A program made the translations under genes and the position numbers. From an uncultured virus (IMG/VR IMGVR_UViG_3300020357_000003) (taxonomy: Duplodnaviria; Heunggongvirae; Uroviricota; Caudoviricetes), in the IMG/VR virus record IMGVR_UViG_3300020357_000003: a stretch of 64,000 nt of DNA; one strand, written 5' to 3'. The notes under the pieces are model-generated. The model searched no databases, had not been told where the DNA came from, and saw only the letters and a list, made by a program, of their open reading frames with translations. Positions 27,974 to 44,857 of the stretch are shown one piece after another. Numbering within the stretch: the stretch's first letter is position 1; each line of letters opens with the position of its first letter.

Positions 27974-28721
27974 TTTAAAAGATGTTGATACAGATTTAGA
28001 AACAACGGATTACTTAACTAAAGAGATGCTGGCGGGCGCCCTTCCTGATAAGCGTTTTCGTAAGCATATCTCTGATAAAGTTGTTGATATTATTAATTCT
28101 GAGGCTGATAGTGAATTAAGACGGGTGTTTAGGGACAATGCATTAACGTACTCTTCCGTTTTATCAACTGGAAAGTACTCATTGGCGGCATATATAAATG
28201 CTGTAAAGTTCGTGTCCCTTAAATTAATGGGAGATAAATCATCTACTGCTTACAGTAAAGTATTCCCAGATCGTTATCAAAACTTGATAAATAAAGGTGC
28301 TTCGGCATCTTATATTGCTTCTTTTGCAGATAATTATAGTAAAACAGGATTAATAACGAAAATAATGGAACAAACCATGGTGCCTACGCATATTTTAAAT
28401 GCGGGCGTCTATCAAGAAGCTATTAATACACAAGCAGAATTAATGCGTACTGCTAAATCGGAATTAGTAAGGCAGAAAGCGGCTGAAAGTTTAATTAGCA
28501 ATCTGGCCTCCCCAGCGGCTGCTAAAGTAGAAATAGATATTGGTTATAGTAATGACATAGTAGAAGATTTAAGAAATACAACTAAAGCACTTGCTCAACA
28601 GCAACTACGTATGATTATGAATGGCCAGGCAAGTGCTGGAGAAATTGCAAAAAGTGAGATTATTGTTAAACCAAAAGAACTTAAAGAAGCCACTTATGAG
28701 GTAGTTGAAGATGCTGACTAA
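27960..28721 (+). CDS. N4 gp69-like protein (putative terminase small subunit)
   Basis: YINAVKFVS, AYSKVFPDRY, YQEAIN; directly upstream of terL. Confidence 0.75.
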   Translation: MQLANLKDVDTDLETTDYLTKEMLAGALPDKRFRKHISDKVVDIINSEADSELRRVFRDNALTYSSVLSTGKYSLAAYINAVKFVSLKLMGDKSSTAYSKVFPDRYQNLINKGASASYIASFADNYSKTGLITKIMEQTMVPTHILNAGVYQEAINTQAELMRTAKSELVRQKAAESLISNLASPAAAKVEIDIGYSNDIVEDLRNTTKALAQQQLRMIMNGQASAGEIAKSEIIVKPKELKEATYEVVEDAD

Positions 28722-30309
28722 GAAAACAGTCGATGAATGGCTAAACGATTGCGAGTATGAAGATGATCCAAACTATGTACCAAGTGAGTTTGCTTTAGAA
28801 TTTGTTTCGTTTATTAAATTAGTTAATGGAGAAAAAGGGGAAGAAAATAAAACTCCTGTAATCCATTACAAAATGTTGGACAAAATCGCAGGCAAAACCC
28901 AAAATACCGCTAATATGTGTGCTCGTGGCCTTGCCAAGACTACAATATTTGCTGAGTACCTATTTTTATACATTGCTGTATATGGATCTATTCCAGGATT
29001 TGGAAAAGTCGATTATGCATTATACCTTTCAGATAGTATTGAAAACGGGGTAAAGAAAATGCGACTTCGTATAGAGCGTAGGTGCGAACAAAGTGAATTT
29101 TTAAAATCATTTATAAAAGAATCTAGGTTTACGGATATACGTTGGTATTTTAAAAATATGGAAGGAAAGGAATTTGTTGTTACTGGGCATGGTGCAAAGA
29201 CAGGTGTTCGTGGTACAGTTGAATTGAATACTCGGCCTCAATTAGCCGTACTTGATGATCTGTTAGGAGATGAAGATGCCCGTTCTGCGACTATTATTGA
29301 AAACGTTGAGAACACCGTCTACTCTGCCATTGACTATGCGTTGCATCCGAATAAACGTAAAGTTATTTGGTCTGGAACTCCGTTTAATGCTAAAGACCCT
29401 TTATACAAAGCTGTGGAATCTGGTGTCTGGCATGTAAATGTCTATCCTGTTTGTGAAAAGTTCCCGTGTAGTGAAGAGGAATTCAGGGGTGCTTGGGAGG
29501 ATAGATTTAGCTACGAATATGTGAATACACAATATTTAAAAGCTAAAGGAGCAGGTAAACTAGATTCGTTTAATCAAGAATTAATGCTAAGAATTACGAG
29601 TGAAGAAGACCGTCTCGTTAACGATTCCGATATAGTTTGGTATAAAAGAAACAACGTACTTAAAAATAGAGGAGCTTATAATTTTTACATTACTACGGAT
29701 TTTGCTACATCTGATCGAGAACATGCCGACTTCAGCGTAATTAATGTTTGGGCTTTAAATAACAATGGAGATTGGATGTGGGTAGATGGATTTTGTAAAC
29801 GGACGCTGATGAATGACACTATTGATGCGTTATTTCGTTTAGTTCAAGAATGGAAGCCTCAAGAAGTTGGTATTGAAACAACTGGGCAACAAGGCGGATT
29901 TATAAGTTGGATTCAAAATGAAATGGGTCATCGTAATAATTATTTTACGTTGTCGAAAGGAAAAAATAGTAATACGATAGGTATTAGGCCGACTAAAGAT
30001 AAAATGAGTCGTTTTCAACAAAATGCTGTACCATTATTTAAATCTAAGAAGATATGGCTACCAGAAGAATTAATGGATAGTCCTGAATTAGAAGAGTTGC
30101 TTTTTGAGTTGTCTTTAGCTACTCTAAAGGGGTTTAAAAGTAAGCATGATGACCATATTGATACAATTAGTATGATTGCTGAATTGAATGCTTGGCGACC
30201 AAATGAAGTATCTATTTCAGAAGAAGAAGAAGATAAATTACAAAGTTCTCCGATGTGGGGAGATGATAATATGATTCCGCAACGGGGGGATAGTTCGTAT
30301 TTTGTTTAA
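28711..30309 (+). CDS. terL: terminase large subunit (N4 gp68-like)
   Basis: RGLAKTT, GVRG, VLDD, SGTP, FNQE, TTDFA, HDDHID. Confidence 0.93.
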   Translation: MLTKKTVDEWLNDCEYEDDPNYVPSEFALEFVSFIKLVNGEKGEENKTPVIHYKMLDKIAGKTQNTANMCARGLAKTTIFAEYLFLYIAVYGSIPGFGKVDYALYLSDSIENGVKKMRLRIERRCEQSEFLKSFIKESRFTDIRWYFKNMEGKEFVVTGHGAKTGVRGTVELNTRPQLAVLDDLLGDEDARSATIIENVENTVYSAIDYALHPNKRKVIWSGTPFNAKDPLYKAVESGVWHVNVYPVCEKFPCSEEEFRGAWEDRFSYEYVNTQYLKAKGAGKLDSFNQELMLRITSEEDRLVNDSDIVWYKRNNVLKNRGAYNFYITTDFATSDREHADFSVINVWALNNNGDWMWVDGFCKRTLMNDTIDALFRLVQEWKPQEVGIETTGQQGGFISWIQNEMGHRNNYFTLSKGKNSNTIGIRPTKDKMSRFQQNAVPLFKSKKIWLPEELMDSPELEELLFELSLATLKGFKSKHDDHIDTISMIAELNAWRPNEVSISEEEEDKLQSSPMWGDDNMIPQRGDSSYFV

Positions 30310-33378: not shown

Positions 33379-34125
33379 ATGAGCAAAGCTAGAGAACTCG
33401 CAAATTTATTAGAAGCAGACGGGGATGTTATCTCAGCTAGCTTAGATAATGTACCTGCTTCTGATTGGACGACATTATTAAATAAGCCCTCTCATGCAGA
33501 TACAGATACTACTGATGCGAGTAATATCGGGAGTGGGACATTGCCAAATGCTAGAATATCCGCATTACCAACTAGCCAATTAACAGGAGCTGCAACAGAT
33601 ATTGTTTCTCATGGGTTAGCTGCAAGTGCAACTACTGATACTACAGATGCAAGTAATATTGGTTCAGGTACATTACCTAATGCTCGAATATCTTCTTTGC
33701 CAACAAGTCAGTTAACTGGCGCAGTAACGTCTATTGCATCACATGGTTTAGCCGCATCTGCTACGACAGATACCACTGATGCAAGTAACATTAGCAGTGG
33801 TACGATACCAACCGCTCGCTTGGGTTCTGGTACTGCTGGTTCAGGAAATTATCTTCGAGGTGATGGAACTTGGACAACCAATTGTACAAATCATAGTAAT
33901 TGTACGACAAATGGAAATGGTATGGCTAATTGTGCTAATTGCTCAGGTACAGATAGTTTTGGTAATTGTACGACAAATGGTAAAGCAAATTGTGCGAACT
34001 GTTCAGGAACAGTAAGTGCCATTAGTTCACAAGTTAGTCATAGTAATTTTGGGTATAATTTTTCTGCGTGTAATCCTAGTATTGGTGTGGGAACCCGAGC
34101 ATGTGACTGTGCTTGTAACTGTTAA
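33379..34125 (+). CDS. tail-fibre-like protein with 44-aa repeats and 12-Cys C-terminus
   Basis: DASNIGSGTLPNARI repeats, NYLRGDGTW, then NC-rich tail ending CDCACNC. Confidence 0.75.
   Translation: MSKARELANLLEADGDVISASLDNVPASDWTTLLNKPSHADTDTTDASNIGSGTLPNARISALPTSQLTGAATDIVSHGLAASATTDTTDASNIGSGTLPNARISSLPTSQLTGAVTSIASHGLAASATTDTTDASNISSGTIPTARLGSGTAGSGNYLRGDGTWTTNCTNHSNCTTNGNGMANCANCSGTDSFGNCTTNGKANCANCSGTVSAISSQVSHSNFGYNFSACNPSIGVGTRACDCACNC
33502..33830 (+). repeat. about 2.5 copies of a 132-bp (44-aa) coding repeat
   Basis: units start at 33502, 33634 and 33766; differences mostly synonymous. Confidence 0.85.
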
Positions 34126-34140
34126 TAGGAGAACCTAATA

Positions 34141-35109
34141 ATGTTTAAAAATATGTATGACAGTCTTTCTTGTGGGGTTCATCTAGAATTACTAGTCTAT
34201 GATGATAAAGTATGCCTTAAAACATGGTCTGAAATTAGTGAAAATGAATTCAATCAAGTAAATGTTGTTAATGACTACACTGTAACACGTAGCTTAACTT
34301 TTTCTGGTGGTAATCCAAAATATATGGAATTTGTGAATGAAGCTAGTGGTGTATACCATAAGTATTTACCAACAGGATATATTTTTGGGGAGATGATCGA
34401 AGGTGAGAAATTTATTCCTAATATGCCTGCTAGTATTAGAGATAATTATGATCATTTAACAGGAACATATTGGAGAAATCATTCATATGCTTTAATTGAT
34501 CCCACTGATCCTTCTATTCATGCAAGTGAAAAAGATGATGTAGCATGTTGGGCAGTAGGCGTTAAAAGTGATGATCATGTTGTTAACCCATTTTATAATA
34601 CGTTAACAGATACATTTCAAACAAAAGCGCATCCATTAAGATCGTTAAGAAAGTATACTGCTCCTGTATCATTAATGCTATATCAACCATTTAAAACAGA
34701 TAAATTTACCGATTGTTCTATGACATTTAAATACAATAAAGGATCTGGATTTAGTACGAATATTTTAGATGGGTGGACAGCGGGAACAGGATATGATTAT
34801 TTAGATCAGATGGGAGATGCATTTCCTAATTTTGAAGTAACTTCTGGTGGTGGCGATATTGATGCTGGAGATACTGATACAGTGAATTTTAAAATGGTTG
34901 ATAAAGACGGTACAACCATTGAAAAAGATTCAACTTTATATTTAGAATCAACAGGAGGGTATTTGCCTAAAACTAGAGTAGATGTTACAAACGGTTTAGG
35001 ATCGTTTAAAGTTACAGCATTAGGCTTGGTAGCTGATGACACATTTAAAGTAAAAATGGGTTTTCGAAATTACACGGGTGTAAAAGATGTTAATTATACG
35101 GTTAAATGA
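34141..35109 (+). CDS. hypothetical protein with C-terminal Ig-like domain
   Basis: C-terminal beta-strand pattern LYLESTGGYLPKTRVDVTNGLGSFKVTALGL. Confidence 0.6.
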   Translation: MFKNMYDSLSCGVHLELLVYDDKVCLKTWSEISENEFNQVNVVNDYTVTRSLTFSGGNPKYMEFVNEASGVYHKYLPTGYIFGEMIEGEKFIPNMPASIRDNYDHLTGTYWRNHSYALIDPTDPSIHASEKDDVACWAVGVKSDDHVVNPFYNTLTDTFQTKAHPLRSLRKYTAPVSLMLYQPFKTDKFTDCSMTFKYNKGSGFSTNILDGWTAGTGYDYLDQMGDAFPNFEVTSGGGDIDAGDTDTVNFKMVDKDGTTIEKDSTLYLESTGGYLPKTRVDVTNGLGSFKVTALGLVADDTFKVKMGFRNYTGVKDVNYTVK

Positions 35110-35882
35110 ACAAACCCGAACATATAGCATATTATGAAAGTCTTACGGATGAGCCAGAGGATTCTGTTCAACATCCCCTAGATCAATTTGCAAAAATTGA
35201 ACAAAAATTTGCAACTCCGTTTCTTGAAAGCGATACTGAGCTTCCCTCTAAAATGCGTCAGGATCTTATTCAAGTTCTTGAAAAGAAAGAGACGGCTCTG
35301 TCTGCACTAAAAGAAAGTGATCCAGAATTTTATGGGATGGCGGAAGCTAAAGGCTTTTATGCTACAACTCATTACAATCTATTTGAAAATCCTTCTGAGT
35401 ACCCCTTTGCCGAACAATCCATCCTTGAATTTGAACAAATTGCTTGTCAGATGATTCGTTACTACATCCGTAAAGGATGGGGAGTTCGTCAGGCTAGTGA
35501 ATTACGATTAGAAGGACGCTGTTTTGGGAATGTTCAAATTCCTGGAGCCAGAACATATCCTCATTATCATCAATCTGTTGATGGTGTTCTTGTACATTAC
35601 TTGTCTATTGGGGATGGGGATTTTATGAAAGGGGCTGAGACATCTCCTCGACATGGAACACATAAAGTTTTATTTATGGATCCCCGCCCAGCAATTAATT
35701 ATCCTTATTGGGAAAAGGTACATGCAGTTACTCCTAGAGTTGGATTAACACTAATTCATCCTAACTACCTATGGCATGAAACAAATCCTTGGTTGGGACA
35801 AGGAACACGAGTGTGTATAGTTGTAAATTTTCGTGTAATGTCTCATGGGTATAATGAACTAAGCCAACCTTTAAGAGGATAG
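35106..35882 (+). CDS. 2OG-Fe(II)-type oxygenase (HxH...H)
   Basis: PHYH, VHYL, FMDPRP, HPNYLWHET, RVCIVVNF. Confidence 0.8.
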   Translation: MNKPEHIAYYESLTDEPEDSVQHPLDQFAKIEQKFATPFLESDTELPSKMRQDLIQVLEKKETALSALKESDPEFYGMAEAKGFYATTHYNLFENPSEYPFAEQSILEFEQIACQMIRYYIRKGWGVRQASELRLEGRCFGNVQIPGARTYPHYHQSVDGVLVHYLSIGDGDFMKGAETSPRHGTHKVLFMDPRPAINYPYWEKVHAVTPRVGLTLIHPNYLWHETNPWLGQGTRVCIVVNFRVMSHGYNELSQPLRG

Positions 35883-35883
35883 C

Positions 35884-36471
35884 ATGTCATATTGTGTTCA
35901 TGAACTGTTTTCTGTTCCTCTTATTCATCTCCAATTTAACCAACATCATAAATATACGAATCTTCCCATTATTAGGAAAAAGGACAAAAGACCAGCAAAT
36001 TGGACTATGTCAGTTAATACTTCTTACCCTAATATTGTAAAAGATGATGAATTTATTAGTTTGCATACTGCTAATGAATTAAAGCTTGATATTAGTAATG
36101 CAATTACTACTGCATTTAAAGATATTAATATTTCTACCAATTTTAATATATTTTCTTTTTGGTACAATATTTATCATGAACATCAAGGACAAGAACCACA
36201 CAATCATATTGGGAATGTAAATCCCTATTGGTGTGGGACATACTATAATAAAAATGCAACACCAACGATTTTTTATAAAGAACAAGGTATACGTGATATT
36301 CATATCATGCCAGATTGGGACGAAAGTAAACTTAGATTATCATTTACACCCGTTTCAAAAATTGATATGAACGAGGGGGATATTCTTTTATTTCCCCCAT
36401 ATCTTACGCATTCAGTTCCTGAACAGGAACAGTATAGAGTTACTTTTTCATTTAACCTTATTAGGAAATAA
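35884..36471 (+). CDS. 2OG-Fe(II)-type oxygenase (TIGR02466-like)
   Basis: WYNIY, QEPHNH, FPPYLTHSV, RVTFSFN. Confidence 0.82.
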   Translation: MSYCVHELFSVPLIHLQFNQHHKYTNLPIIRKKDKRPANWTMSVNTSYPNIVKDDEFISLHTANELKLDISNAITTAFKDINISTNFNIFSFWYNIYHEHQGQEPHNHIGNVNPYWCGTYYNKNATPTIFYKEQGIRDIHIMPDWDESKLRLSFTPVSKIDMNEGDILLFPPYLTHSVPEQEQYRVTFSFNLIRK

Positions 36472-36472
36472 T

Positions 36473-37219
36473 ATGTTTGAATCAGGGCCAGGTAAAGACT
36501 TACAAGTCACACATGAGTGGCCTACTATTATTGGTACCGAAATAATTGAACTACCCCAGATAATGAAAGATGTTCTTGTTAAAGTAATTAAAAGACAAGA
36601 TAGCGTTTTTACAGAGCATACATATAATAAAACAAATAAAACTACGGCTGAATTAGCCGCATTTGACGAAAAAATCTATAATATATTTGACTATTCACGT
36701 TATGATACAGAAGGAGAAATAACGCAGATTAAAGCATTTGAAAAAATTATGTCAAAAGTAATTAGAACTTATGTTACTGAAGCATGGCAAGTAGACCCAC
36801 ATGTAGAAATTAATGTTCGAGGTTTTGGTAATGTTCAGAATACATTTGGAAGAAGAACAGCACCTCATTTTCATCATGGTTGGGATGGTGTTTTAGCTCA
36901 TTATGTAACAGTAGGTAATGAATATGAATCGGATGTTCCCATGACGCCTATGGATACACCGTATAGTGGGCAATTGTTATTATTAGATACACGACCAAGT
37001 ACATGCATTCCTGATGGTGATGTCAGAAATGATGTTGTACGTTTAAATCCTGTTAATGGATTAACTGTTATTCACCCTGGTTATGTATGGCATGAAACTC
37101 ATACACATACTCAAACTGGGGATCGAGTTCTTGTTGCAATCAATTTTCATATATGGAATCGTAATTTTGATGAACTACCAACATCTTTGGACAACTCCTA
37201 TAGGCCAAGTTCAAATTAA
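36473..37219 (+). CDS. 2OG-Fe(II)-type oxygenase (HxH...H)
   Basis: PHFH, AHYV, LDTRP, HPGYVWHET, RVLVAINF. Confidence 0.8.
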   Translation: MFESGPGKDLQVTHEWPTIIGTEIIELPQIMKDVLVKVIKRQDSVFTEHTYNKTNKTTAELAAFDEKIYNIFDYSRYDTEGEITQIKAFEKIMSKVIRTYVTEAWQVDPHVEINVRGFGNVQNTFGRRTAPHFHHGWDGVLAHYVTVGNEYESDVPMTPMDTPYSGQLLLLDTRPSTCIPDGDVRNDVVRLNPVNGLTVIHPGYVWHETHTHTQTGDRVLVAINFHIWNRNFDELPTSLDNSYRPSSN

Positions 37220-37862
37220 TCTTGATGAAGATTTAAGAAGATCTTTGGTTCAATGTGTTGTTCAGAACTACATTCAACGAATGGACGCACAAGAACCTGT
37301 GCCTTCATTTATAGATTTATTTGATTATACGCAATATGCACATCAAGATAAGTTAGAGATATTTAAAGCTGTGCATAGGTTTGAACTAATTATTAGTAAA
37401 ATTATTAGAACCTACGCTAAACAAGCTTGGAATATATCTTCTGACATACCAATAAGTATGCATTGTACAAGCAAAATTCATCAGCCCTTTGAAATGAGAG
37501 TAGAACCGCATAGGCATAATAGTACAGATATTTGCATAATTCATTACTTAACTGCTGGAGGTGAGTTTCATTTAGATAATCATAATCCTCCTGAGCCATT
37601 AAATAATGACTATAGTGGGGATTTGCTAATATTAGATCCTAGGCCAAATATTACATATCCTTACAATGAAAAAGCAAAAACATTTAGACCCCAAACTGGG
37701 ACAACTATAGTTCATCCTGGGTATGTTTGGCATGAAACCCACCAACATACCAAGGATGGGTTACGAATTTGTTTAATTGTTAATGCTGAAATAGATAGAG
37801 AATCCAAAGTACATCCATCTTTACAACAATTAATTAAACTACGTCCAGTGAGCCTCGTATGA
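37170..37862 (+). CDS. 2OG-Fe(II)-type oxygenase (HxH...H), start revised to MNYQHLW
   Basis: PHRH, IHYL, LDPRP, HPGYVWHET, RICLIVN. Confidence 0.8.
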   Translation: MNYQHLWTTPIGQVQINLDEDLRRSLVQCVVQNYIQRMDAQEPVPSFIDLFDYTQYAHQDKLEIFKAVHRFELIISKIIRTYAKQAWNISSDIPISMHCTSKIHQPFEMRVEPHRHNSTDICIIHYLTAGGEFHLDNHNPPEPLNNDYSGDLLILDPRPNITYPYNEKAKTFRPQTGTTIVHPGYVWHETHQHTKDGLRICLIVNAEIDRESKVHPSLQQLIKLRPVSLV

Positions 37863-39229
37863 AATTTAAATTATTATTAGAAAAAGCTGAAAAAGAATTA
37901 ATTCTGATTTATGACAATATGACATCAGAATTAAGGTATGAAAATGGTGATATTGTTATTCCTCAAAATGAATTTGTGAATTGGGAACCTTTTTATAAGA
38001 TGGATGCGGGTAAACGAAATCTTGTTAAAATTAAAATTCAGCTTGGATTAAAATGTAACTATTCTTGTACATATTGTTCTCAGCGGTTTGTTCCAAGAAA
38101 TCCTGGTGACAACCCCCAAACCTATGAATCTGTAGATTTGGATGCTATTAATACGTTTATTAAACGATTTGACACAATTAGTATAGGTGAAACTATTCAT
38201 TTTGAAATGTGGGGTGGGGAGCCATTTATGTATTTTGGCAGTATGAAGCATATTACTGAGCAACTTCATAAAAAATTTCCACATGCTACGTTTAGCGTTA
38301 TTACGAATGGATCTCTTTTAACTGATGAAATAGTGGAGTTTTTATTTAAGCACGGGTTTTCTGTCTCCCTTTCGCATGATGCGGTAGGTCAGGAGACTAG
38401 GGGACGTGATCCTTTAGATAATGCGGATTCAAAACGATTACTATTTAAATTACGTAATGCATTAGTTCCTCAAGGAAAATTTTCTGTTAACACGATGATT
38501 CATAAAGATAATGACTCCCGAGCGGATGTTCAAAAATGGATTAAAAATGTTTTTGGAGTAGTTCCTATTGGGGAAGCTGGAACAGTTGATGCTTATGACG
38601 AAGGTGGCACAGCAATGTCTTGGCAAACACCTGAAGAGCATATTGCGTATAGAAGAAAAGCTTTTAATGAAATTATGAATGGAAAATTAAAACCTGTTCA
38701 AATGGACATTGTACCTCGAAAAATTGAAGGGTTTATTTCCACCCTAAAGCAACAGACCCCAGCTAGTTCCTTAATGCAAAAATGCACAATGGATCGTCCT
38801 GATGTAATGGCAGTAGATCTCAGTGGAAATGTCACGACCTGTCAAAATGTAACAGCATCAAGTCAAAATATGGCAGGAATTTCCCATAAAATTGGGCATA
38901 TGGATGATTTGGAAAGCGTCAATATAGCAACAGGAACACATTGGTCAGATCGGGAAGAATGCCCAAAATGCCCTGTACTTCATTTATGCCAAGGTGCTTG
39001 TTTATTCTTGCCTTCTGGCTCACAAGAATGGAAACTTTCCTGCGATAATTCATATTCCGATAATGTTGTCTGGTTAGCTGCTAGTTTATATGAGCTTACG
39101 GGGCATATCTTGTATCGTATTGAAAATGACGAATTACCTGAATATAGAAAAGACATATTTGGCTTTAATACAACAAAATATGCTGTGGAGGATGAAAATA
39201 GTGCTAAGATATTAGCAGGTAAAGCATGA
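37859..39229 (+). CDS. radical SAM/SPASM-domain enzyme (peptide/protein maturase type)
   Basis: CNYSCTYC, WGGEPF, ITNGSLL, C...GNVTTC, CPKCPVLHLCQGAC...C. Confidence 0.93.
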   Translation: MKFKLLLEKAEKELILIYDNMTSELRYENGDIVIPQNEFVNWEPFYKMDAGKRNLVKIKIQLGLKCNYSCTYCSQRFVPRNPGDNPQTYESVDLDAINTFIKRFDTISIGETIHFEMWGGEPFMYFGSMKHITEQLHKKFPHATFSVITNGSLLTDEIVEFLFKHGFSVSLSHDAVGQETRGRDPLDNADSKRLLFKLRNALVPQGKFSVNTMIHKDNDSRADVQKWIKNVFGVVPIGEAGTVDAYDEGGTAMSWQTPEEHIAYRRKAFNEIMNGKLKPVQMDIVPRKIEGFISTLKQQTPASSLMQKCTMDRPDVMAVDLSGNVTTCQNVTASSQNMAGISHKIGHMDDLESVNIATGTHWSDREECPKCPVLHLCQGACLFLPSGSQEWKLSCDNSYSDNVVWLAASLYELTGHILYRIENDELPEYRKDIFGFNTTKYAVEDENSAKILAGKA

Positions 39230-42362: not shown

Positions 42363-43002
42363 CTTTTTTCACGAAATATTTTCTGTTCCTCTGTGGATAG
42401 GGAATTTTTATCGAAAAGAATCAAACGATAGAATTTTAGGTTTGGTCGAAGAGTTTAGAAGAGGAAATAAGAACGCTGCCTTAGTAGGCAACGAATGGAA
42501 TTACAAAACCATTACTGATAACAAAGATCTACAGGCCGAAACAGGCGTAACATCTTATGCCACCGCAAATTTAACACAAATTCCCGATTGGTTTCCAACA
42601 GTTCTAGAATTGCAAGCGTGGTCGCATCAAATGATCTCTACTATCTGGGATGTAGATCGAATTATGGGTCAGATGACAATTAGTAATATGTGGACTACTA
42701 TTTATCCAGAAAAGTCTTTTGTTCCTGAACATACTCATAATGGAAGTATGATTTCAGGGGTCTACTATGCAAAAGCTCACGAAAATTGTGGGGATCTTGT
42801 TTTTCACGATCCAGCGTGGGTTGCAAAATCTATGGTACTAAACAGCGGAACTACTTTCCCAATTAAAGGCACTAAGCAAAAAGTAAGTCCCAAAACAGGA
42901 GATCTTATTTTGTTTCCTTCTTGGCTACCTCATTCAACTGAATTTAATGAGACAACTGAAGATAGAATAATAGTGAGCTTTAATTTTCAATTTACTTCTT
43001 AA
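42352..43002 (+). CDS. 2OG-Fe(II)-type oxygenase (TIGR02466-like), probable ATA start
   Basis: EHTH, ISGVYY, FHDP, FPSWLPHS, RIIVSFN; frame extends upstream of 42442 with HEIFSVPLW. Confidence 0.8.
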   Translation: MKNNFFHEIFSVPLWIGNFYRKESNDRILGLVEEFRRGNKNAALVGNEWNYKTITDNKDLQAETGVTSYATANLTQIPDWFPTVLELQAWSHQMISTIWDVDRIMGQMTISNMWTTIYPEKSFVPEHTHNGSMISGVYYAKAHENCGDLVFHDPAWVAKSMVLNSGTTFPIKGTKQKVSPKTGDLILFPSWLPHSTEFNETTEDRIIVSFNFQFTS

Positions 43003-43018
43003 ATATCCATAAAGATAG

Positions 43019-43579
43019 GTGATACAGCATAATACATTTGCAGAAACTGTAGGAATCTACAACGGTGAGCAATCTCTCGTAGGCTCTACTGTAACTTATA
43101 TTTACCAGTTAAAACATAAGTACCCCGAATCCGATGGTTATTCTAACCACGGGGGCTGGCAAAAAGAGTTAGACCTAGACCATCCAATAAAACATACTAT
43201 TCTAAAGCAATTCAAAGAATACCTTAAATGGTATTGCGTAGAAGAACCTCGATGGATGGACTGTACCAGTTTATTTTGTAATGTAAATCCACCAGGTTCA
43301 TCTAATGTAATGCATCATCATAAAGTAGGGGAATTTAGTGGTGTATTGTGGTTACAAGCAGAAAGCAACTCTGGCGATATTGTGGTAATGAACCCATTTT
43401 ATAATAGATTTATGAACACATGCATTAAGTCACTTGAAAGGGACTATAATGCCCTGTATATAACACCTGAACCAAATAAAGGGGCATTCTTTAATAGTAA
43501 TTTAGTTCATTATGTTGATATCAATAGATCGCAAACAGATAGGATTTCAATAGGTTATAATATCGGAATTCACTATTAA
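43019..43579 (+). CDS. 2OG-Fe(II)-type oxygenase (TIGR02466-like)
   Basis: SNHGGWQ, NVMHHH, FSGVLW, LVHYV, RISIGYN. Confidence 0.82.
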   Translation: MIQHNTFAETVGIYNGEQSLVGSTVTYIYQLKHKYPESDGYSNHGGWQKELDLDHPIKHTILKQFKEYLKWYCVEEPRWMDCTSLFCNVNPPGSSNVMHHHKVGEFSGVLWLQAESNSGDIVVMNPFYNRFMNTCIKSLERDYNALYITPEPNKGAFFNSNLVHYVDINRSQTDRISIGYNIGIHY

Positions 43580-44091
43580 TTCTGTAACCCCCATATTTGT
43601 ATAGAAAATCTAGGAGTTGCAATATAAGGTGAAACTGTAGTAACTGTATGTAATTCAGCAGCTTCGTTAACAACCATCATATTTTGTTTAGGGCATATTG
43701 CTTTAAAAATATAATCTGTTTTTTCTTCTTTGTCTTTCCAAATAAAAAATCCTCCACAATTAGCATCTATTGAATTTAAATAAATAGTTGCACCGAAACT
43801 GTAGTGGGGATCATTATGAATATCAATATTACTCAATTTATTCCACATATAAAATTGATATACAATTTCTTTTGTATTTGATGGAAAATAGGTTTTATTC
43901 AGTGCATTATTTAATTGAATAGCTAAATTTTGAGGTATGTATGCTACTAGCACATCACCACAAGCACCCTTGTTTACTCCCTTCCATATGAATGTTGAAG
44001 AGCCCCAAACTCGTTCTCCTAACATAGAGTTTAATTGAGCACTACAGTCAAGGAGTAATTGTCGTGGTAATACATCAGTGTATATTTTCAT
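43576..44091 (-). CDS. 2OG-Fe(II) oxygenase (HxD...H)
   Basis: IHND, ATIYLN, GGFFIW, LHTVT, RFSIQIW. Confidence 0.82.
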   Translation of the reverse strand: MKIYTDVLPRQLLLDCSAQLNSMLGERVWGSSTFIWKGVNKGACGDVLVAYIPQNLAIQLNNALNKTYFPSNTKEIVYQFYMWNKLSNIDIHNDPHYSFGATIYLNSIDANCGGFFIWKDKEEKTDYIFKAICPKQNMMVVNEAAELHTVTTVSPYIATPRFSIQIWGLQN

Positions 44092-44100
44092 AGTCCGTTC

Positions 44101-44463
44101 TTAAGAATAAAGCCAAATTACTCGAGGACTTTTATTTTTATCTACATCTACATGAATAAAAGTTTTTGCAATACCTACTCTATCAAATACTTTTAGTGCT
44201 GCTTCTAGTATTTCGTAACGCTCCGCAGAGCCATTATAGCCTAGGTCTGCAGCCCAGCCATCTATATGGCTAGAACTAGGGGTGGCATTAATCGCAGCAT
44301 TATGTTTTTCACATCTAATTCCACTATTAATACGAATTCCTCTGTCCACAAGGTTTCTTACTAATTGTACTTTTGCGGCAAGCTCATCTTTAATGTTGTC
44401 TTTACCACATCCACACTTACATGCATACTCTTCTCGGTCAAAATTAGCTGTTAGATTGCCCAT
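44101..44463 (-). CDS. peptidase M15A endolysin
   Basis: CKCGCG, INSGIRCEKHN, SSHIDGWAAD, FIHVD; start at MGNLTANF. Confidence 0.88.
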   Translation of the reverse strand: MGNLTANFDREEYACKCGCGKDNIKDELAAKVQLVRNLVDRGIRINSGIRCEKHNAAINATPSSSHIDGWAADLGYNGSAERYEILEAALKVFDRVGIAKTFIHVDVDKNKSPRVIWLYS

Positions 44464-44857
44464 AATCAATTCCTTTCTTTTGAGAGTAACGACATTCTTT
44501 ACTACAATAAAGTCTGTCATAACGTTTAGCTAGGAATTTAGCTCCGCATCTAGCACAATTCTTTTCTACTTGTTCTTTTTGTCTAGATATAAGACGTTGC
44601 CTATTCTCTCTTATAGTTCGGCATTCAATAGAACAAGTAACTCTACCAGCTGACGGGACGGTATTATCACATTCACTACATTTGTTTAGATCTGCTCCAA
44701 TACGATGAAATTTAACTTCATCCGTAACCTCATCAGCTAAACCTCGTTTAAAATTACGCCAATGAATATTCGAGAGCTCTTCTTTTGGAATGGTTGTTAC
44801 ATATTCAAGATTTCCATCCTTGTCTGGTCTATAAATTTTAACATCGTAAATACTCAT
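44444..44857 (-). CDS. double C4 zinc-finger protein
   Basis: VKIYRPDKDGNL; CSEC...TCSIEC; CARC...YCSKEC. Confidence 0.7.
   Translation of the reverse strand: MSIYDVKIYRPDKDGNLEYVTTIPKEELSNIHWRNFKRGLADEVTDEVKFHRIGADLNKCSECDNTVPSAGRVTCSIECRTIRENRQRLISRQKEQVEKNCARCGAKFLAKRYDRLYCSKECRYSQKKGIDYGQSNS

Follow-up and report, generated by a model that had tools for sequence, protein, structure and literature searches.

Introduction

Radical S-adenosylmethionine (rSAM) enzymes carrying a SPASM domain are known to cross-link small peptides, while whole proteins have joined their substrates only recently (QhpC; CrpA in 2026). Closest in print to the system treated here is CrpC/CrpA of Methanococcus voltae, where a SPASM rSAM enzyme modifies a full-size, cysteine-rich protein encoded adjacent to it (Dieter et al, 2026; PMC13692751). 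Here, we analyse a gene cassette (positions 33379–39229) in a 64,000-nucleotide (nt) stretch of DNA from an uncultured tailed virus (IMG/VR record IMGVR_UViG_3300020357_000003; Caudoviricetes), in the following termed the window. The cassette encodes an rSAM/SPASM enzyme together with a putative tail fibre ending in a ladder of alternating cysteines, an Ig-like partner protein, g2, and four oxygenases. Enzyme and ladder accompany each other in hundreds of other phages as well, and the virus probably modifies chemically the tip of its own host-binding fibre. Maturation of Cys-rich substrates by rSAM/SPASM enzymes is already known; what differs here is that the substrate would be a virion fibre.

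CrpC shares with the phage enzyme the count and order of seven cysteines, three at auxiliary cluster I (AuxI) and four at AuxII, and CrpA likewise holds its cysteines in its C-terminal part (PMC13692751). The two systems differ in that CrpC has an N-terminal RiPP recognition element (RRE; RiPP, a ribosomally synthesized peptide that is modified post-translationally) and belongs to TIGR04463, for which the phage enzyme scores 40.2 bits against a cut-off of 525. CrpA is, moreover, a cellular archaeal protein of unassigned role rather than a virion fibre, and the sections of the CrpC paper drawn on here give it neither an Ig-like partner nor oxygenases. In QhpD/QhpC, as described in the same source, an rSAM/SPASM enzyme installs Cys–Asp and Cys–Glu thioethers in a protein subunit that is kept in a larger assembly (PMC13692751). 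In contrast to the phage system, QhpD works with an RRE and a leader peptide and its product is an enzyme subunit; the phage enzyme reaches 61.4 bits against the QhpD cut-off of 453. CteB/CteA (SCIFF) and PapB/PapA are related by sequence, PapB being the best NCBIfam match (4.1e-18) and CteB (5wgg) the second-best match in the PDB (4e-11). The family scores are, however, far under their cut-offs, no RRE was detected in the phage enzyme, and the substrate would be a structural protein of 248 amino acids (aa) without leader or cleavage logic. In AlbA and CteB, an open AuxI site takes up a substrate cysteine, whereas anSME, with eight cysteines, is fully ligated (PMC6231123). Further, the streptococcal RaS-RiPP enzyme NxxcB joins a Cys thiol of NxxcA to the β-carbon of the Asn three residues upstream and also accepts Ala, Gln, and Asp in its place (PMC9389541). 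NxxcA is a short leader–core peptide with one motif and is compared with the phage system by substrate motif alone. Phage ladders hold overlapping N/A/D-x-x-C units, as in ACDCACNC with A-x-x-C, D-x-x-C, and A-x-x-C.

A parallel to the oxygenases is offered by the marine phage Syn9, which carries several tandem Fe-dependent dioxygenases of different families; in the part concerned, Iyer et al (2010; PMC2938197) read these arrays as secondary-metabolite synthesis and name no substrate protein. In the window, the oxygenases sit between the Cys-tailed fibre with its partner and the rSAM gene, which therefore suggests a protein substrate. In phage T4, too, a trimeric fibre carries an alternating-residue motif distally, with like side chains on one face: rows of His-x-His bind iron in the tip of its long fibre, gp37, and its gp12 reportedly has a metal-binding fold. 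The T4 motif is built of His, not Cys, and to our knowledge has no dedicated modifying enzyme. In the literature searched, which among supplements took in those of the CrpC paper, no paper links an rSAM enzyme to a phage fibre; the main text of the CrpC paper contains neither "phage" nor "viral", and three supplement files contain none of "phage", "tail", "fiber", and "virus" (PMC13692751).

Results

Organization of the cassette

An earlier note on this DNA, written from the letters alone, had described a RiPP-like maturation operon of six genes. Its features all lie where it placed them, but the count was mistaken, as seven ORFs (open reading frames) occupy 33379–39229. They are tightly packed, all on the plus strand, and their spacings (in order, +15, −4, +1, +1, an overlap of oxygenases 3 and 4, and −4 nt) agree with its description of genes overlapping or lying within 15 nt of each other.

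33379–34125, plus strand: Cys-tailed fibre protein, 248 aa, an ORF with an N-terminal anchor of ~40 aa, 44-aa repeats, an LRGDGTW motif, and a Cys-rich tail
33502–33818, plus strand: tandem repeat within the fibre gene, period 132 nt (44 aa), 2.4 copies, 73% matches
33883–34125, plus strand: Cys-rich tail, residues 169–248, with 12 Cys and the motifs NCTNHSNC and NCANCSG; proposed substrate core
34099–34122, plus strand: terminal ladder ACDCACNC, at the end of the fibre tail
34141–35109, plus strand: partner protein g2, 322 aa, with an N-terminal domain (1–228) and an Ig-like C-terminal domain (229–322; nt 34825–35106)
35106–35882, plus strand: oxygenase 1, 258 aa; PF13759, phrog_81
35884–36471, plus strand: oxygenase 2, 195 aa; PF13759/TIGR02466-like, phrog_81
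36473–37219, plus strand: oxygenase 3, 248 aa; PF13759-like (21 bits, under the Pfam cut-off), phrog_81 at 6e-7
37170 (or 37083)–37862, plus strand: oxygenase 4; PF13759, phrog_81
37859–39229, plus strand: rSAM/SPASM enzyme, 456 aa, with CxxxCxxC at 66–73 and seven invariant SPASM Cys

The frame of oxygenase 4 is open from 37083; a start at ATG 37170 gives an N-terminus that can be aligned with oxygenase 3.

Linkage between the enzyme and the cysteine ladder

At E ≤ 1e-20, the family of the rSAM enzyme comprises 1223 proteins. Scanning viral contigs with a profile gave at least 601 loci that encode a relative, and the best 80 were kept, the window's own sequence included; across these best 80 of at least 601 loci, identity to the window enzyme is 33–100%. 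With at least 2500 nt required upstream, 71 of the 80 were usable. A ladder was scored where CxCxC falls within the last 14 residues of a same-strand ORF upstream of the rSAM gene, and all other ORFs of at least 60 aa in the same viral loci served as the control. Such a ladder is present in 68 of the 71 viral loci, compared with 4 of 3175 control ORFs; the misses are L023, L033, and L070, the last with an ORF ending INCRNCNC. Bacterial genomes yielded 259 rSAM relatives, from which 80 were kept, 78 with a full ORF and 58 with enough upstream DNA. Here, the ladder-ended ORF occurs in 51 of 58 loci (control, 5 of 4347 ORFs), which point to Limnohabitans, other Burkholderiales, Alphaproteobacteria, and a few others. 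Among the seven bacterial misses, the ladder is capped by a Hint domain in L146, L154, L156, and L159, lies near the end in L160, and is lacking in L114 and L157.

The linkage also holds in reverse. A DNA pattern encoding NCNCNCNC plus stop matched 53 viral stretches, 45 of which have a family rSAM gene 3' on the same strand (E ≤ 2e-123). The other eight consist of four with at most 1420 nt downstream, two off-frame matches, and two (L173 and L181, same sequence as L189) in a 36-codon frame, so that the rSAM family follows all 45 tails of this kind with enough downstream DNA. The 36-codon frame, which ends in ICNCNCNCNCNCNC-stop in L173, L181, and L189 and has no family rSAM within 5.3–7 kb, might encode the ladder as a small peptide or be open merely by chance.

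Named phages carry the pair as well. A tblastn search finds an enzyme with 42% identity in Achromobacter phages JWF and 2-1 and in Ralstonia phage RSP15. In JWF, the rSAM gene lies two genes 3' of the gene for a 483-aa protein annotated with similarity to the T4 fibre protein gp36, which contains RQNCNCDCNCNCSC and then a Hint domain; the rSAM gene of RSP15 is the third gene 3' of a "side tail fiber" ending NCQCGN. The tail-fibre counterparts in named phages have either NCNCDCNCNCSC plus Hint or the NCQCGN end. An internal ladder running straight into a Hint domain (CFPAGT...MADG) is seen in L001 (6787–8238; JWF gp028), in L082 (3984–5129), and in L146, L154, L156, and L159, and in the Hint-capped loci the first Hint Cys is at the same time the last ladder Cys. 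Hint domains splice or cleave themselves; the Hint-capped variants would mean that the finished ladder has to lie at a free C-terminus.

The linkage of rSAM homologues to Cys-ladder fibres, which the earlier note had put forward as a check, was thus found in both directions, and it holds across podo-, sipho-, and myophages, prophages, host phyla, and gene orders. Because it is reciprocal across morphotypes, hosts, and gene orders, the fibre tail is, judged by gene neighbourhood, probably the substrate of the rSAM enzyme.

The radical SAM/SPASM enzyme

The enzyme matches PF04055 with 50.3 bits (cut-off 29.5), the SPASM model TIGR04085 with 32.3 bits (cut-off 27), and phrog_1802 at 7e-54. In an alignment of 32 relatives, C66, C70, and C73 of the CxxxCxxC motif are invariant, as are C309, C328, C368, C371, C377, C381, and C395; no invariant Cys lies between residues 73 and 309, and only these seven follow residue 300. 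The motif and the full set of SPASM cysteines noticed earlier are both recovered in this form. Among named maturase families, PapB (NF047865) scores 65.7 bits against a cut-off of 340, QhpD (TIGR03906) 61.4 against 453, anSME (TIGR03942) 61.1 against 349, TIGR04463 40.2 against 525, and SCIFF 38.7 against 425. The closest solved relatives by sequence profile are 8vpo (9.8e-20), CteB 5wgg (4e-11), and anSME 4k37 (1.4e-9).

By analogy with described enzymes, thioether formation is the leading candidate for the chemistry, and we give it an even chance. This assignment is made because the seven-Cys layout equals that of CrpC and its count matches AlbA and CteB, because the ladder cysteines alternate with N/A/D, the acceptor residues of NxxcB, and because protein substrates have precedents in QhpC and CrpA. 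The same tail might instead undergo formylglycine formation from Cys, C–C or C–O cross-linking, epimerisation, or cross-linking to g2. The best profile match, 8vpo, reportedly figures in a paper about rSAM cyclopropyl synthases, anSME aligns over its whole length (69–375, E 1.4e-9; TIGR03942, 61 bits), and the reaction cannot be read from homology because the enzyme fits no named family. However, anSME has two fully ligated auxiliary clusters as against the seven invariant cysteines of the phage family, and the anSME substrate motif, C/S-x-P/A-x-R, is absent from the fibre tail sequence. Conserved cysteines alternating with N/A/D also fit thiol-to-carbon linking better, and we consider a non-thioether reaction on this substrate unlikely. 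An identity as anSME itself was rejected on the same grounds of seven instead of eight cysteines, 61.1 bits against 349, and the missing sulfatase motif.

The cysteine-tailed fibre protein

The fibre protein has its first cysteine at residue 169, with all 12 located in the final 80 residues, and its C-terminus reads RACDCACNC. Both the Cys-rich tail and the fibre-type repeats claimed earlier are thereby obtained by computation, as residues 169–248 and as a 44-aa tandem repeat in 2.4 copies. The 26 other long ORFs of the window contain 0.8% Cys (89/10928), and only three other stop-to-stop frames reach at least eight Cys per 80 aa, every one on the minus strand: two overlap a plus-strand ORF of 1688 aa, and the third is a 137-aa ORF at 44444–44857. 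Among the 16 clade members aligned (alignment A3), the N-terminal ~40 residues are conserved and the terminal CACNC is invariant (16/16); over 60 aa, the N-terminus shares 48% identity with proteins from two Pelagibacter phages. Across 106 distinct 40-residue tails from the cassette loci, the residue x of the (xC)n ladder is N in 67.6%, A in 14.9%, and D in 9.8%, adding up to 92% N/A/D.

The protein lies in the structural module, has 44-aa repeats, and has counterparts annotated as tail fibres in JWF and RSP15; from this context, we infer that it is part of the virion. As the earlier note had found, no separate precursor is evident: no Cys-rich small ORF stands out on the plus strand, where the sole small ORF with at least three Cys is a 23-codon frame within an oxygenase gene. 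A RiPP arises from a short leader–core precursor as a released peptide, whereas the candidate substrate here comprises 248 aa and includes an anchor domain at its N-terminus. Together with the missing small Cys-rich ORF, this makes the system RiPP-like, not a RiPP. The earlier picture of RiPP-type enzymes directed at a fibre tip is supported in part, namely by the reciprocal linkage and by the oxygenase enrichment described below.

In some phages, two or three tandem small (92–176 aa) ladder-tailed proteins precede a single set of g2 and rSAM (L015, L016, L043, L075, L081, L185, L193, L195, L197, L198, L215, and L218). These tandem proteins, which have a common N-terminal anchor in L015 and L016, look like alternative fibre tips served by one enzyme.

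The ladder might also be a column that binds metal or Fe–S in a trimeric needle, with the rSAM enzyme and g2 serving assembly. Alternating cysteines would put their thiols on one face of a β-strand, CxC is a classical metal-binding spacing, and His-rich runs (HHFDPHHHH; HHFDPHHHHRNCNNCNCNC) stand directly before the NC ladder in the fibres of L035, L046, and L068, which hints at metal binding. Binding metal, however, does not call for a dedicated rSAM/SPASM enzyme, and yet ladder and enzyme occur together wherever the locus is informative (45 of 45), and we know of no SPASM enzyme acting as a metal chaperone. We regard a metal column as improbable; the metal and cross-link readings are nevertheless not exclusive because unlinked cysteines could still bind metal. 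The further idea of the earlier note, a tip that mimics a metallophore, finds no support.

The partner protein g2

Residues 229–322 of g2 form an Ig-like domain in a model with a predicted local distance difference test score (pLDDT) of 91 (VIA Z 11.1, root-mean-square deviation (rmsd) 2.2, 91 aligned residues), with GH2 accessory domains (Z 11.1) and intimin (Z 10.1) as neighbours. It coincides with the conserved part of g2, the C-terminal ~95 residues (alignment A2, g2 homologues). Residues 1–228, modelled alone (pLDDT 82), have no clear structural relative among 48,161 chains, the best match being SPP1 gp22 (Z 4.4, rmsd 4.3, 107 aligned), and a Foldseek search with the whole g2 model returned only Ig-type and GH2-accessory-domain matches with low template modelling (TM) scores. 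A candidate assignment as Sf6 needle knob, prompted by a weak Pfam match (19.5 bits against 27), was not confirmed.

With the window protein alone as the phmmer query, a g2 homologue is found 3' of the tailed ORF in 55 of the 68 viral cassettes, and phage RSP15 has one too (2e-14). g2 is thus the third core gene of the cassette. The order is tail–g2–rSAM in some loci and tail–rSAM–g2 in others, and the smallest cassettes consist of tail, g2, and rSAM (L035, L044, L056, L061, L066, L074, and L077). Possible roles of g2 are presentation of the tail to an enzyme without a detectable RRE and capping of the tip. A complex prediction with rSAM, g2, three 4Fe-4S clusters, and fibre residues 150–248 gave scores of 0.00 and 0.22, under the 0.32 mark, and carries no weight for or against binding.

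The oxygenases

All four oxygenases match phrog_81, and the earlier reading of four such enzymes holds, specified as PF13759-type. Oxygenases 1 to 4 match PF13759 at 3.8e-8, 1.7e-9, 4.5e-4, and 4.8e-6 with 34.1, 38.4, 21.0, and 27.3 bits, respectively; at a Pfam cut-off of 27, the first two are clearly above, the fourth is at the limit, and the third is under it. TIGR02466 is matched by oxygenase 2 only, with 33.2 bits against a cut-off of 62.5. In 12 aligned oxygenases, H153, H155, and H224 are invariant and R235 is at least 90% conserved. In our literature search, no paper characterising the PF13759 family was found.

Oxygenases are concentrated in the cassettes. Within them, 73 oxygenase-like ORFs fall in 132 kb, compared with 19 in 615 kb outside, that is, 0.551 against 0.031 per kb or an 18-fold enrichment. 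Of the 68 cassettes, 47 hold one or more, and four further loci have one skipped by ORF choice. The intervening genes are mostly oxygenases, of PF13759 or of the prolyl 4-hydroxylase (P4H)-like PF13640, also in freshwater and prophage cassettes. In the marine clade closest to the window, an oxygenase is always next to the rSAM gene, with up to five in all, and throughout this clade it is the orthologue of oxygenase 1 that adjoins it. Nonetheless, oxygenases are an optional add-on of the cassette.

In L069 (3904–4848; 1.7e-40) and L076 (3842–4843; 1.9e-50), a solute-binding protein of the tripartite ATP-independent periplasmic (TRAP) type (PF03480, DctP) is encoded between g2 and rSAM. Genes of this kind would suit a different role of the cassette, in which the rSAM enzyme and the oxygenases produce or change some small molecule or host protein and their place beside a fibre gene reflects genome organisation. 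Two more oxygenases outside the cassette (42442–43579) go in the same direction, as do the tandem dioxygenase arrays of cyanophage Syn9, read as metabolite biosynthesis in the part of Iyer et al used here (PMC2938197), and a cyanophage rSAM maturase that is called an antibiotic-synthesis gene in the passage concerned (PMC12801897). The window cassette, however, has neither other biosynthetic genes nor a separate precursor, and the ladder linkage is reciprocal and survives changes of gene order, morphotype, and host phylum. A role in auxiliary metabolism thus appears very improbable.

Genomic context

The window belongs to a marine, N4-like podophage with a G+C content of ~36%, as seen from its virion RNA polymerase, N4-type RNA polymerase, portal, major head protein, and large terminase. 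The terminase gene (TerL, 28705–30309) lies 5' of the cassette and is followed by an SU10-type adaptor and two genes matching tail-fibre PHROGs; small ORFs come directly 3' of the cassette. The two additional phrog_81 oxygenases, of the 2-oxoglutarate (2OG) type, are encoded on the plus strand at 42442–43002 (1.8e-32) and 43019–43579 (2.6e-22). On the minus strand, the ORF at 43576–44091 is P4H-like by eye, and that at 44101–44520 (139 aa) resembles, also by eye, an M15-type peptidase (endolysin). Scans for promoters gave 26 signals where shuffles led one to expect 31.8, and scans for terminators 4 compared with 3.9, in neither case an excess.

In a blastn search of the cassette against named phages, the sole match is 50 nt in an oxygenase gene of Synechococcus phage S-SCSM1, and a single-protein scan of viral contigs with the rSAM enzyme returned only a contig 100% identical to the query. 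An rSAM gene identical to that of the window is also present in a 43-kb IMG/VR record. Moreover, contig C12 of a 1.4-Mb, 98%-complete assembly of 40 contigs (G001) carries the gene at 100% identity; this is either a phage contig binned with a small-genome bacterium or a pointer to the host.

Discussion

On balance, we lean towards the view that the cassette is a protein-maturation set for a phage fibre tip, with a thioether-making rSAM enzyme and hydroxylating oxygenases. The fibre would dock on the virion via its conserved N-terminus and expose the C-terminal Cys ladder. A ladder cysteine would be bound by the rSAM/SPASM enzyme at an auxiliary Fe–S cluster, and the enzyme would remove a hydrogen from a small residue nearby (Asn, Ala, or Asp), leading to a thioether from the Cys sulfur to carbon within one chain or between chains. 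Such staples could form in the reducing cytoplasm, where disulfides cannot, and g2 would present the tail to the enzyme or cap it. The four oxygenases may, as a more tentative part of the scheme, add hydroxyls to the same Asn/His/Thr-rich tip.

Several observations weigh against this scheme. Modification, virion residence, and trimer state are predictions here, and the linkage counts are not independent events because many of the cassette loci are near-duplicates, even though they include 106 distinct tails and enzymes of 33–100% identity to that of the window. Even on its own, with no enzyme involved, an alternating Cys ladder could bind metal. The fibre protein itself matches nothing in Pfam or PHROG, and the label "fibre" therefore comes from its context, its repeats, and the way its positional counterparts are annotated. 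On the side of the rSAM enzyme, Pfam finds no RRE in the 55 residues that precede the rSAM motif and gives PF04055 alone at E ≤ 0.01. To judge from its sequence, the enzyme belongs to no named maturase family, all scores lying far under the cut-offs, and its seven-Cys SPASM set could be completed by a non-Cys ligand.

The oxygenases raise further objections. Classical 2OG-Fe(II) oxygenases use an HxD/E...H iron triad and a basic residue that binds 2OG. Those of the cassette appear to carry HxH...H and not the classical HxD...H, and both closest solved structures, 3bvc and 2rg4, are entered as "uncharacterized protein". HxH corresponds to the cupin-type state in the relevant part of Iyer et al (PMC2938197). 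No oxygenase is seen in 21 of 68 cassettes; such enzymes are lacking from roughly one quarter to one third of cassettes and are hence dispensable for the core. Finally, rSAM enzymes are oxygen-sensitive and oxygenases need O2, yet both are encoded in the same operon.

In its widest form, the proposal states that many phages, ranging from marine N4-like podophages over siphophages and myophages to prophages of Burkholderiales and Alphaproteobacteria, staple the distal tips of their receptor-binding fibres by rSAM thioethers on an Asn/Ala/Asp–Cys ladder, with a dedicated Ig-like partner, and that marine lineages add batteries of Fe-dependent oxygenases. We consider this generalization possible, at a likelihood slightly short of even. 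The system is directly testable because there are cultivable carriers such as phage JWF and because the proposed substrate, a C-terminal tail, is short.

If the proposal is true, the fibre tip would represent an undescribed class of post-translational modification of virions, and RiPP chemistry would enter into how virions are assembled and hosts are recognised. Staples that are covalent, resistant to reduction, and formed in the cytoplasm could account for the lasting rigidity of small fibre tips outside the cell. Moreover, the cassette points to a definite protein as substrate for the many PF13759-type oxygenases that marine phages encode, and the tandem dioxygenase arrays of these phages, long unexplained, would thereby gain a protein rather than a metabolite as their substrate.

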